Assembly: GCF_003334785.1 (NCBI RefSeq)
Contig: NZ_QOWV01000003.1
Source: Escherichia coli
GTDB taxonomy: Bacteria > Pseudomonadota > Gammaproteobacteria > Enterobacterales > Enterobacteriaceae
Strand: one strand, 5' to 3'
Length of the DNA: 64,000 nucleotides
The notes under the pieces were generated by a model. The model was given only the letters and a program-made list of their open reading frames with translations, did not search any database and was not told the origin of the DNA. Within the stretch, counting starts at the first letter, position 1. Each line of letters opens with the position of its first letter. Positions 23,513-30,068 of this stretch are shown piece by piece. The translations under genes and the position numbers were made by a program.

Positions 23513-24013
23513 TTAGAGTGGTTGTTTAAGTTCGGTTAAAACCATATCTATGGTGTATATAATAATAAGTACACCACTAATCGGGATGCTCATATAGATA
23601 TATCCCATTTGCCAGCCTAAAGCGGGCGAGGTCTGACCTGAATCGAATGTATCCATCGTTAATAGCCCACCACCATATACCATAATGATGGTTGCGAAGA
23701 TAATAACGATAATCTGAATACACAAAAATAAATGACGTCGGGCTTTTCCTTTCAGCATCATAGGTAGCAGGTCAATCGCCAGATGCCGGTTTTGCCCTGC
23801 GGTGTATGCCCCACCAAAAAGTCCAAGACAAATAAAGAGCAAACGGCTGAGTTCATCTGTAAAAATACTGGGACTAGTAAATATAAATCGTGCAGCCACC
23901 TGCCACGTCACACATGCCACGATGATCGCCAAAATGGTAATGTTCAATGCTGCAAGCAGAGCATTAATAGATCTAATTATATTTCGCATAGTGATTAACC
24001 TTTGCAATATCAT
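23513..24013 (-). CDS. TRAP transporter small permease subunit (DctQ family)
   Basis: 166-aa hydrophobic ORF between flavoprotein gene and DctM; start ATG overlaps upstream stop (ATGA); an internal ATG at 23989 is an alternative start. Confidence 0.78.
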   Translation of the reverse strand: MILQRLITMRNIIRSINALLAALNITILAIIVACVTWQVAARFIFTSPSIFTDELSRLLFICLGLFGGAYTAGQNRHLAIDLLPMMLKGKARRHLFLCIQIIVIIFATIIMVYGGGLLTMDTFDSGQTSPALGWQMGYIYMSIPISGVLIIIYTIDMVLTELKQPL

Positions 24014-26091
24014 TCATCCTGTGGCTGGTAAATTGTCCCATTAAGAAAACCAGGCCAGTTTTTTTCAAACCAAATACCTCGGATAATAGGAAACTCACGA
24101 ACAGGTGTTTCTCTGACGTGAAAGATACCGTTGCAATAATGAATAAGTAGTTTATCTTTTTTATCCTCAGTACGCTCTGAACGAAAGCGCCAGGCATCAC
24201 AAAAACCATTTCGTGTTTGCGGAATAGAATTTCCATCCCTGTCGAGAATAATACGTGCTCCCCGACTACCACCACCTGCGTCAATATAATGCGTTAATTG
24301 CGTTAATACGGCGGCAGAAGTCAGTGCCATATGCCGCCACATAAACAGCTCGGCAACTTCACCCACATGTTTGATAGCCAATCCATGCCGTTGGACAAAT
24401 TCGCTCAATAGCAGGGCATCGCGAGTGGCGCGTCGGACTTTATCGGCATGGCAAATAAATCCCGCATGGTCAGACATTCGTGCCTGAATTTTTTCTCTCA
24501 CAACCGACAACGGCATCCCGGTCCCGTTATCGTGCGCCTGAGTAATGATCTCTCTTATAGAAGCCAGTGTAGGAGCTACCAGCTGTGCTATATCTCCATC
24601 AATATTCCGCTTTTGCGTGCAACCAATAAAACGTGCCAGACGAACAGCAAAAACCTGCCCGGCATTCAATGCTGCACCACCAGGGCGAGTGACGCCGTGT
24701 GTGCCAGCAACTTCCCCCACGGCGAAACAGCCGGGCAGGGAGGTTTGTCCCCAGATATCCACTTCAATGCCGCCATTCATATGCTGATTATTCATGGCAA
24801 ACTGCAAAGGCTGTGTGGTGAGATCGTAACCGTGCATCTTATACAGCGAGATAGACAGCGGATTCATTCGTTGCAGCCGTTCGATGGGCGATGGTGCCAG
24901 AGCGTCGTTATTTTCCAGATACGCGCGAACGTCGTCGTCCAGTCGATCTAATGAGAACGGCAGGTCACCCGGCACCGCTTCAGGATTGCGATTGAAATCC
25001 ATAAATACCTGACGCCCTGATTGCTGCTCTTGCGCTACTGCCATATCTAACAAGCTGGAGCCAAAATCCATCACCCGAGTGGCGTGGAACGGCCACTGAT
25101 AGCCTTTACGGAAAATGTTTGAAGCCAGCTCCTGGGTGGTGCGATAGTAATCCGCGAGGAAGTTATACTCGTTACCCTCAGCATCCACGGAATAGATATA
25201 CGGGATCACCTGTACATAGGTACCGGATAAATTCCACGGAAACGTGCTACGCGGCGTGCCTATACCAAACTGGCTTTCGGTCAGATTGGTTAGCGTCAGG
25301 CCTTCCTCCAGCGCCAGCCCCAGCGAGCCAAAACATTTGTGTGGGTACACACTGTCGCGATAAAGCTCGCCAGGCCCTCCTGTTGCCAGTACCACATTGG
25401 GCGCAGTCACAATTGCCAGCCCCCAAGGGTTATGGGCGCGATGACCGGTCGCGAGGATTGCCCCCGCAACACGGTCTTCGCCGTTTTCGTCACGCTGATG
25501 CAGCAGTTTAATCACTGTTGCACTGGTCAACACTGGAATGGCGAGGCGCTGTACTTCTTCCAACAGCACTTTCACCATTAACCTTGAGGTACGCGGCCCA
25601 CACGAGGTTGCACGCCCGGCTTCGTCATGGTCGGTTTGATAACGAAGAATCGCGCCATAGCGATCTTCCGGTAATTCCAGACCAAGATATTGCAACCCGC
25701 CAAGAGTGTGCAGAGAACCTACCGCTTCGACATAAGCGGTGTCGTGATCCATCGCCCCACCGCTCGCCAGTGCCTCTGCCAGTTTGGTGAAGTTGTCGCC
25801 GTTGCCCGCGGTAGCGGCGGTAAACAGTGTCTGTTTATCGGAACCAGAACATGCCGACGTCCCCATATATAACCCGGCGGTGGCGATCAGCACATTTTGC
25901 TGGCGGCGTTTAAGTTCCACAGCTGCACGCAGCCCGGCTGCACCACTGCCGACTACCAGGGCATCTGTTTGCCAGAGTGGGTAATCAACACCGTCTACCG
26001 TGACAACCCATGCGGGCTCTGCCTGTGCAAAACCCTTTGGGAAAGTAACGTGCGTCAGCGCATCAAGGATGGTGTCATCAAGCTGACTCAT
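24010..26091 (-). CDS. FAD-dependent oxidoreductase of the fumarate reductase / succinate dehydrogenase flavoprotein superfamily (stand-alone, 693 aa)
   Basis: N-terminal dinucleotide-binding motif (LVVGSGAAGLRAA) and C-terminal motif CFAVGEVAGTHGVTRPGGAALNAGQVF resembling FrdA-type GLFAVGE...HGANRLG...; start overlaps CoA-transferase stop (ATGA). Confidence 0.78.
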   Translation of the reverse strand: MSQLDDTILDALTHVTFPKGFAQAEPAWVVTVDGVDYPLWQTDALVVGSGAAGLRAAVELKRRQQNVLIATAGLYMGTSACSGSDKQTLFTAATAGNGDNFTKLAEALASGGAMDHDTAYVEAVGSLHTLGGLQYLGLELPEDRYGAILRYQTDHDEAGRATSCGPRTSRLMVKVLLEEVQRLAIPVLTSATVIKLLHQRDENGEDRVAGAILATGHRAHNPWGLAIVTAPNVVLATGGPGELYRDSVYPHKCFGSLGLALEEGLTLTNLTESQFGIGTPRSTFPWNLSGTYVQVIPYIYSVDAEGNEYNFLADYYRTTQELASNIFRKGYQWPFHATRVMDFGSSLLDMAVAQEQQSGRQVFMDFNRNPEAVPGDLPFSLDRLDDDVRAYLENNDALAPSPIERLQRMNPLSISLYKMHGYDLTTQPLQFAMNNQHMNGGIEVDIWGQTSLPGCFAVGEVAGTHGVTRPGGAALNAGQVFAVRLARFIGCTQKRNIDGDIAQLVAPTLASIREIITQAHDNGTGMPLSVVREKIQARMSDHAGFICHADKVRRATRDALLLSEFVQRHGLAIKHVGEVAELFMWRHMALTSAAVLTQLTHYIDAGGGSRGARIILDRDGNSIPQTRNGFCDAWRFRSERTEDKKDKLLIHYCNGIFHVRETPVREFPIIRGIWFEKNWPGFLNGTIYQPQDE

Positions 26092-29267: not shown

Positions 29268-29276
29268 GATTCAGCC

Positions 29277-30068
29277 TCAGAAGCGCGGCATACTTAAGCC
29301 GCCGTCGATGGCGACCGCCTGACCACAGGTGTAAATCAGTTTACCTTCCGCCATCGCGCGGACAGTGGAAGCAATATCAGCCGGATAACCCCAACGTCCC
29401 CACGGCACCAGACCTTTGGCAATCAGTTCGTCGTAATAAGCCGTTGCCGGAATAGTCATATCAGTTTTGATGAGACCTGGGCGCACTTCATAAACGCCAA
29501 TTTGTTCATTACAAAGGCGAGCTGCAAATAGACGAGCAGCGGCAGAAACGGCGGTTTTGGCAATGGTGTATTCGCCGCGATTCATCGCCAGCATGATGGC
29601 GTTGATGGAACTGACGAAAATAATCGAGCGGTGCGGCAGTTCCGCTTCCGGTTTCGGCTGTGCCAGTAAACGCTTACTGAATGCCTGAGCAAGGAAGAAC
29701 GGCGCGCGGGTGTTAATGGCAATGTTTTGATCGAAGCTGTCTGGTTCGAGGTCGAGGAGGTCACCGCGTTTTTTCACTGAAATGCCTGCGTTGTTGAGCA
29801 GGCAGTCCAGACGTCCCCACAGGTTTTGCGCCGCGTCGAGCATCTCTTCATGCAAGGAGAGATCGCCGACATCGGCAGGGAAGCAAATCACTTCCACGCC
29901 TTCAGCTATACATTCTTGTTGTGTGATATGCAGTTTTTCTACGCTGTCGGCATCGGGAAGATCGTTAATCAGCAGGTTAAATCCGCCACGAGCAAGCTCC
30001 AGCGCACAGCCCTTTCCAATACCACGAGCGGCTCCGGTAATCACGGCAACAGGACGAGTGGATTTCAT
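29277..30068 (-). CDS. short-chain dehydrogenase/reductase (SDR) family oxidoreductase
   Basis: 263-aa product from ATG 30068; TGAARGIGKG cofactor motif and YTIAK (YxxxK) catalytic motif; ORF-track start at 30110 is a TTG extension. Confidence 0.85.
   Translation of the reverse strand: MKSTRPVAVITGAARGIGKGCALELARGGFNLLINDLPDADSVEKLHITQQECIAEGVEVICFPADVGDLSLHEEMLDAAQNLWGRLDCLLNNAGISVKKRGDLLDLEPDSFDQNIAINTRAPFFLAQAFSKRLLAQPKPEAELPHRSIIFVSSINAIMLAMNRGEYTIAKTAVSAAARLFAARLCNEQIGVYEVRPGLIKTDMTIPATAYYDELIAKGLVPWGRWGYPADIASTVRAMAEGKLIYTCGQAVAIDGGLSMPRF

Follow-up and report, generated by a model that had tools for sequence, protein, structure and literature searches.

One conserved and one probably incidental ATGA overlap in a compact operon between rplI and ytfB of Escherichia coli

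Introduction

The commonest junction among co-directional gene pairs of Escherichia coli is the -4 ATGA overlap, and 707 of 2987 such pairs lie at distances of -8 to +6 nt (PMC10666635). In coupled pairs of this kind, among them hyfH-hyfI, menD-menH, astD-astB and ydbH-ynbE, an AUG overlaps a UGA and the 3' end of the upstream gene contains a strong Shine-Dalgarno (SD) sequence (PMC6728339, PMC10666635). Overlaps of -4 nt commonly support reinitiation in E. coli, and it has been hypothesized that local RNA structure masks the SD and thereby blocks de novo initiation (PMC6728339). Reinitiation efficiency decreases with distance, by 5-70% at +2 nt and by 80-100% at +38 nt, and the 203 pairs that form a second small peak at +9 to +12 nt (194 of the 201 characterized are polycistronic in K-12) are thought to initiate largely independently through an SD in the spacer (PMC10666635). 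Here, we examine a block of eight minus-strand genes in a 64,000-nt stretch of E. coli DNA (the window; contig NZ_QOWV01000003.1, assembly GCF_003334785.1), in which two ATGA tetramers had been read as start/stop overlaps of one tightly coupled operon.

The genes encode, in order, an SDR protein, a TIM-barrel protein, an enoyl-CoA hydratase/isomerase family protein (ECH), a CoA-transferase (CoAT), a flavoprotein (FAD) and the TRAP transporter subunits DctQ, DctM and DctP, with a tetR gene divergent from them. We consider it highly probable that they form an ordinary compact catabolic operon under TetR control, in which the CoAT/FAD overlap is true and the FAD/DctQ overlap incidental. With the start codons annotated by PGAP, the successive junctions from SDR to dctP measure 9, 9, 9, -4, 20, 42 and 52 nt. 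TRAP sugar-acid operons, such as E. coli yiaK-S with yiaMNO or Salmonella STM3169-3171 for glucuronate (PMC7660916), likewise encode DctP, DctQ and DctM together with catabolic enzymes. Unlike in those systems, the transporter genes stand here in the order Q-M-P at the 3' end of the enzyme operon, and the enzymes comprise CoA-dependent ones (CoA-transferase, crotonase) plus a NadB/FrdA-like flavoprotein.

Results

A genuine overlap joins the CoA-transferase and flavoprotein genes

26088-26091, minus strand: ATGA stop/start overlap of the CoAT stop TGA with the FAD start ATG, with GGAGGA upstream (sequence, PGAP, conservation).
26088-27629, minus strand: gene 4, CoAT, fused family-I CoA-transferase of the acyl-CoA:acetate/3-ketoacid type, FadX/YdiF-like, 513 aa (PGAP, NCBIfam).
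24010-26091, minus strand: gene 5, FAD, FAD_binding_2 flavoprotein, NadB/FrdA-like, 693 aa (PGAP, NCBIfam).

The CoAT and FAD genes are joined by a genuine and conserved 4-nt stop/start overlap. Positions 26091-26088 read ATGA on the minus strand, within …GAG GAT GCA TGA / ATG AGT CAG…. The FAD start at 26091 is the one annotated by PGAP; it is the first candidate codon to follow an in-frame stop, the only one near the conserved N-terminus, and lies 8 residues upstream of an LDxLTHV motif that is conserved in FAD homologues of 55-60% identity. The GGAGGA that precedes it is the strongest SD of the operon, at -9.3 kcal/mol, compared with -6.4 kcal/mol at the 5th percentile of all ATGs in the window. 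The tetramer is kept at this junction in E. coli L002, E. whittamii, E. albertii, Escherichia sp. MOD1, Salmonella enterica and Klebsiella pasteurii; elsewhere, the junction is a 14-nt overlap (Entomohabitans) or a 12-nt gap (the betaproteobacterium Uliginosibacterium).

In its architecture, the junction resembles the coupled -4 pairs described above: both genes run in one direction, AUG and UGA overlap, and the strong SD is located within the 3' end of CoAT, the upstream gene. Termination-reinitiation coupling is plausible at this junction, which would be the one such place in the operon. In the minimum-energy fold, GGAGGAUG is paired with FAD codons 8-10. We found no clear support for an SD-masking hairpin as the means of enforcing coupling: the fold scored z = -0.48 against shuffles, no better than these, and an alignment of 8 sequences held no real covariation, its single compensatory change falling outside the SD-masking helix. 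Overlaps are reported to be enriched among subunits of heteromeric complexes; since CoAT and FAD are non-adjacent in most other taxa, and sometimes on opposite strands, such a complex is not indicated here.

DctQ probably starts downstream of the second ATGA

24010-24013, minus strand: ATGA arising from the FAD stop TGA; probably incidental, and distinct from the conserved DctQ start (sequence).
23990-24009, minus strand: 20-nt spacer from FAD to DctQ, holding a conserved AAAGG SD (PGAP, comparison; spacer of equal length in Salmonella).
23513-23989, minus strand: gene 6, TRAP small permease DctQ, 158 aa counted from the conserved start (PGAP, NCBIfam, alignment).

Both TCAT tetramers of the original prediction are present on the plus strand, and the overlap at CoAT/FAD is real; at FAD/DctQ, the start codon that the overlap would need is neither conserved nor annotated. 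There, positions 24013-24010 read ATGA on the minus strand (…GAT GAA TGA / ATG ATA TTG…), and PGAP places the DctQ start at 23989 instead of 24013. We aligned the longest open reading frame (ORF), of 166 aa, with 14 homologues (15 rows in all). Of the 14 homologues, 13 begin at the Met equivalent to residue 9 of this ORF, i.e., at 23989, in a nearly invariant column. Those sharing this start, at 45-99% identity, come from E. coli, Salmonella, Klebsiella, Morganella, Xenorhabdus, Rhodocyclales and Pseudovibrio.

The FAD stop codon itself varies. The junction reads …CAT GAA TAA CATTGCAAAGGTTAATTACT ATG in Salmonella, …GAA TAA TATTGCAAAGG… in E. coli N96 and …GAA TAA TATTGTAAAGG… in E. coli L002. 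With a TAA stop, the codon at 24013 becomes ATA in place of ATG in all three, and in L002 a TAA also interrupts the frame of the 8-codon DctQ extension. Other divergent alleles of this junction occur in five genomes, of which N96, the one examined, has the TAA stop. We asked whether the L002-type TAA allele might be widespread in E. coli and discarded this, as its exact 43-mer occurs in 0 complete genomes. From these alleles, the TGA at the end of FAD looks like a derived change from TAA. The second ATGA would thus arise from a FAD stop TGA instead of the TAA of its relatives, DctQ starting 24 nt downstream, at 23989. By chance, an in-frame ATG at most 8 open codons upstream of the true start is found in ~10% of random sequences, and the window's minus strand holds 267 ATGA tetramers for ~230 expected. 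Taken together, the comparisons suggest that the FAD/DctQ ATGA is probably not a start and that the real gap is 20 nt.

Three enzyme junctions of 9 nt carry stop-fused Shine-Dalgarno sequences

29268-29276, minus strand: SDR to TIM-barrel junction, 9 nt, TGAGGCTGAATC-ATG, SD GAGG fused to the stop; length kept in Escherichia, Salmonella and Klebsiella.
28416-28424, minus strand: TIM-barrel to ECH junction, 9 nt, TAAGGAATGATC-ATG; PGAP start at 28415.
27630-27638, minus strand: ECH to CoAT junction, 9 nt, TAAGGAAATTGT-ATG; 10 nt in Salmonella and Klebsiella.
29277-30068, minus strand: gene 1, SDR, 263 aa, NCBIfam PRK12745 '3-ketoacyl-ACP reductase' (PGAP, NCBIfam).
28425-29267, minus strand: gene 2, TIM barrel, xylose-isomerase-like (AP_endonuc_2), uncharacterized SMc04130 family (RefSeq 'sugar phosphate isomerase/epimerase'; NCBIfam).
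27639-28415, minus strand: gene 3, ECH, enoyl-CoA hydratase/isomerase (crotonase) family, 258 aa (PGAP, NCBIfam).

Longest-ORF starts give the non-overlapping enzyme junctions as 9, 3 and 9 nt, which is the 3-9 nt range given by the original prediction. The 9-nt values hold; the 3-nt value rests on a non-conserved ATG and is really 9. The TIM/ECH junction reads TAAGGA-ATG-ATC-ATG, and a 3-nt spacing requires the first ATG, at 28421, which is ATA in E. whittamii and missing in Salmonella, Klebsiella and Entomohabitans. This ATG would also stand 0 nt from its SD, whereas that at 28415 has the ideal spacing of 5 nt. On these comparisons, we assign the ECH start to 28415 and regard the 3-nt junction as a start-call artefact. 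Over-extension by the longest ORF affects three of the eight operon genes, namely SDR (14 codons), ECH (2) and DctQ (8). For SDR, the start ATG at 30068 and its GAG(A/G) SD are kept in 7 taxa, and the upstream TTG at 30110 is not. As the FAD/DctQ overlap and the 3-nt junction both rest on non-conserved starts, they lend no support to the choice of start codon for DctQ or ECH, for which the overlaps had been invoked.

In all three 9-nt junctions, the SD is fused to the stop codon (TGAGG, TAAGGA and TAAGGA). Spacings are 9/9/9 in the E. coli haplotype that carries an MFS transporter (see below), E. whittamii and E. albertii, and 9/9/10 in Salmonella and Klebsiella, with spacer letters that vary. 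These junctions belong to the E. coli polycistronic class at +9 to +12 nt, in which the SD likewise lies in the spacer (PMC10666635); compared with that class, they stand out by having a stop-fused SD in all three cases and a length that is stable across genera, while remaining within the known pattern. By analogy, each of the three downstream genes would be initiated from its own stop-fused SD, and the +9 junctions would argue for co-transcription, not for tight coupling.

The enzyme genes very probably share one transcript

30137-30158, unstranded: palindrome ATCAACCA-N6-TGGTTGAT in the tetR/SDR intergenic region; arms invariant, flanks divergent.
30281-30928, plus strand: TetR/AcrR-family regulator gene, 215 aa (PGAP; NCBIfam TetR-family matches; Pfam TetR_N and TetR_C_29 in orthologues).
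22169-23470, minus strand: gene 7, TRAP large permease DctM, 433 aa, with its own GGAG SD (PGAP, NCBIfam).
21145-22116, minus strand: gene 8, TRAP solute-binding protein DctP, 323 aa (PGAP, NCBIfam).
22140-22157, minus strand: GC-rich hairpin (7 bp, 4-nt loop) followed by T-rich TATTTATT, in the 52-nt dctM to dctP gap; stem identical in Salmonella, hairpin absent in Klebsiella.
21055-21081, unstranded: perfect palindromic terminator flanked by A and T runs, between convergent rplI and dctP, within a -36 kcal/mol fold.

According to the RefSeq/PGAP annotation, the operon is flanked by rplI (20584-21033, plus strand) and ytfB (30912-31586, minus strand). The interval 21000-31000 is matched at 100% in several complete E. 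coli genomes, including ML35 and H3, and NCBIfam and Pfam assignments are consistent with the RefSeq gene names throughout the operon. Beyond its 3' end, two minus-strand ORFs of 110 and 188 aa (20225-21123) run antisense to priB, rpsR and rplI; they are absent from the RefSeq annotation and almost certainly spurious.

The five enzyme genes are almost certainly carried on one transcript, because junctions of 9, 9, 9 and -4 nt are not long enough to hold a terminator plus a promoter. These spacings are kept in Salmonella and Klebsiella (9, 9, 10 and -4) despite differing spacer sequences. Over the whole operon, the junctions measure 9/9/10/-4/20/42/52 in Salmonella and 9/9/10/-4/90/14/50 in Klebsiella, and in Uliginosibacterium the gene order is that of E. 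coli with looser gaps. A scan of 20000-32000 returned 16 promoter-like matches for 15.9 expected from shuffles, and 19 terminator-like matches for 13.1±3.5. The dctM/dctP hairpin was the sole intergenic terminator-like element inside the operon, the other matches lying in coding sequence at chance level. An Rfam scan for leaders, riboswitches and small RNAs found no element in the operon, only sub-threshold matches on the rplI terminator. The single polycistronic unit of the original prediction is in this way borne out, by inference from short conserved junctions and from promoter and terminator matches at the level of shuffles.

At the upstream end, we compared the palindrome at 30137-30158 across 7 taxa: E. 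coli (2 alleles), E. whittamii, E. albertii, Entomohabitans, Klebsiella and Salmonella. Its arms are unchanged in all, except for one mismatch at the outermost base in E. albertii. A repeat search with a minimum length of 12 did not report it, because the arms are 8 bp long. The palindrome is likely a TetR operator that overlaps the operon promoter, and transcription would start at the promoter adjoining it. At the other end, the terminator at 21055-21081 apparently serves both rplI on the plus strand and the operon on the minus strand, and transcription would end there.

The transporter genes form an exchangeable cassette

Of 5426 complete E. coli genomes, 3127 (58%) carry the CoAT gene. We distinguished three E. 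coli haplotypes at 21095-30928: a TRAP haplotype (1450 genomes), which strain ATCC 8739 has, an MFS haplotype (~1690) and a K-12 type with yjfZ. The MFS haplotype has the same TetR and five enzyme genes, with an MFS transporter in place of dctQMP; we took Combat13F7 as its reference and set aside strain 99-3165, which is rearranged by IS1. Aligned in 100-nt blocks, the TRAP and MFS haplotypes are at least 96% identical to ~24400, then 92%, then 52-62%. The breakpoint lies inside the FAD gene, at ~24251-24300, and homology resumes at 21094. The last ~240 nt of FAD, whose GC content at third codon positions (GC3) is 0.28, thus belong to the exchangeable transporter cassette, and since they travel with it, the two haplotypes encode different flavoprotein C-termini. 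DctM of E. coli is 86% identical to that of Uliginosibacterium, whereas identity across the cluster's five enzymes is only 39-62%; the difference could stem from strong constraint on DctM or from a transporter history of its own.

K-12 retains traces of the operon. Its ytfA pseudogene corresponds to the 3' 403 bp of the TetR gene (window 30526-30928), and beside it stands a 102-bp SDR remnant that is 81% identical to window 29878-29979. These remnants imply that K-12 lost the operon and that it was not simply never present. The locus is also present between rplI and ytfB in Salmonella, Klebsiella and E. whittamii; for Entomohabitans, Escherichia sp. MOD1 and E. albertii, no more than one of the two flanks was seen. 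We found no tRNA in 18000-34000 and no mobility genes in the annotation. The block had been called an island; the occupied site in related genera, the K-12 remnants and the lack of tRNA and mobility genes speak against the term, and the comparisons point to an ancestral, variably lost locus with a swappable transporter module, not to a classical island.

The modular exchange raises the question of whether the transporter cassette is transcribed, partly or wholly, from an internal promoter in the AT-rich 3' end of FAD, which would make two units of the block. Consistent with this, the MFS gene replaces the cassette (~21095-24250, into which the last ~240 nt of FAD fall) as a module, the GC3 of the cassette, 0.28-0.46, lies below the 0.50-0.57 of the enzyme genes, and the transporter follows FAD at a distance of 90-92 nt in Klebsiella and the MFS haplotype and of 227 nt in Uliginosibacterium. 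In the TRAP haplotype, however, FAD and dctQ are just 20 nt apart, the minus strand yielded no promoter-like site at 24010-24300, and no terminator follows FAD. We therefore consider two units unlikely, and a single transcript reaching from SDR to dctP the better account.

A possible CoA-dependent route for an acid substrate

The closest solved relatives of DctP are the hexuronate-binding TRAP proteins 4OVR, 4X8R, 4N8Y, 4N15 and 4N91, at ~40-45% identity, and the GARS…, VRVQ and AEN motifs, which hold the carboxylate-binding Arg/Arg/Asn, are visibly kept. PMC7660916 names the ligands of 4N15, 4N91 and 4MHF. The AlphaFold model of the TIM barrel (pLDDT 91.9) has its best PDB match in 3qc0, a 'sugar isomerase' from structural genomics with 50% identity. 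Its close structural matches are only uncharacterized structural-genomics proteins (3qc0, 3ju2, 7vpf); more distant ones include IolI, ketose 3-epimerases and 3-dehydroshikimate dehydratases. For the NadB/FrdA-like flavoprotein, we found no close solved relative. Its relatives occur in at least 320 species, where they adjoin SDR and TIM-barrel genes or CoAT and ECH genes. The SDR and TIM-barrel neighbours are sometimes accompanied by a 380-residue ORF, which we read, going only by the N-terminal sequence, as a Gfo/Idh/MocA-type oxidoreductase. The alternative MFS transporter may, from an N-terminal motif, be an anion:cation symporter of the type used for sugar acids.

We know of no characterized sugar-acid pathway that matches the set of CoA-transferase, crotonase, flavoprotein, SMc04130 TIM barrel and SDR, and literature searches returned no paper on the operon or the locus. 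Our best guess, held with low confidence, is a CoA-dependent route for a sugar-acid-like or cyclitol-acid-like carboxylate; a hydroaromatic (quinate- or shikimate-like) substrate would be speculation. A more ambitious reading would see an undescribed CoA-dependent route for a hexuronate- or cyclitol-like acid, a CoAT/FAD overlap, conserved in Enterobacteriaceae, that marks co-translational assembly of a CoA-transferase-flavoprotein complex, and an E. coli-specific TGA at 24010 that creates a coupled DctQ start. As a whole, we find it improbable.

Discussion

Our analysis favors an ordinary operon with one true and one incidental overlap. Several observations weigh against this reading. No sigma-70 consensus promoter passed the scan threshold in the 212-bp tetR/SDR region, and the hairpin at 22140-22157 could attenuate read-through before dctP. 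The ATGA allele at FAD/DctQ is the usual one in E. coli, its exact 43-mer being found in 1422 of the 1450 TRAP-haplotype genomes (~98%), and some minor initiation at 24013 could occur in it. The two candidate DctQ starts also have SDs of similar strength, at -4.1 kcal/mol with a 2-nt spacer for 24013 and -3.4 kcal/mol with an 8-nt spacer for 23989. We had considered SD strength as an arbiter between them and dropped it, both SDs being weak and uninformative; the comparative data settled the choice.

These points bear on the possibility of a dual start, in which the TAA-to-TGA change made a new ATGA and part of DctQ is reinitiated at 24013 with an 8-residue extension. With a Salmonella outgroup and minority E. 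coli alleles that have TAA, the TGA/ATGA allele looks derived; no stop codon interrupts the frame between 24013 and 23989 in this allele, there is an AGGA 3 nt upstream, and overlaps of -4 nt are a recognized setting for reinitiation (PMC6728339). Yet the extension is not conserved, PGAP does not annotate it, an ATG this near and in frame is what chance delivers in about a tenth of cases, and the SD spacing for 24013 is poor. A dual start thus strikes us as quite unlikely, and we retain initiation of DctQ at 23989. That both ATGAs are real overlaps, with tight coupling and stoichiometric co-expression from SDR to DctQ, is very unlikely: the presence of both tetramers, the prevalence of the ATGA at 24010 among TRAP-haplotype genomes and the longest-ORF junctions of -4, -4, 3, 9 and 9 nt speak for it, but the DctQ and ECH starts that it needs are neither conserved nor annotated, TAA alleles abolish the ATG at 24013, reinitiation falls steeply with distance and pairs at +9 to +12 nt are probably independent (PMC10666635), and these are separate enzymes and transporter subunits whose genes are arranged differently in other taxa, in order and in orientation, which speaks against a stoichiometric requirement.

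Tight coupling across the operon, as first proposed, accordingly shrinks to a single place: it is plausible at CoAT/FAD, while the other junctions lie at +9 or more with their own SDs. Stoichiometric co-expression fares worse, given transporter gaps of 20, 42 and 52 nt, SDs of their own in front of these genes and a stable hairpin before dctP, a candidate partial terminator or mRNA-stabilizing element. With such gaps and SDs, dctQ, dctM and dctP would be initiated independently. Operon-wide tight coupling and stoichiometric co-expression are, altogether, unsupported.

ATGA overlaps and gaps of ~10 nt are textbook junctions of E. coli operons, the genes are already in RefSeq, and nothing here is new in that respect. 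The value of the comparison is corrective: longest-ORF starts yielded one spurious overlap and one spurious 3-nt junction, and since such over-extension occurs, an overlap alone should not be taken to confirm a start codon. The locus holds more interest than its junctions, as a functionally uncharacterized operon present in ~58% of complete E. coli genomes, served by two transporter cassettes and decayed in K-12.

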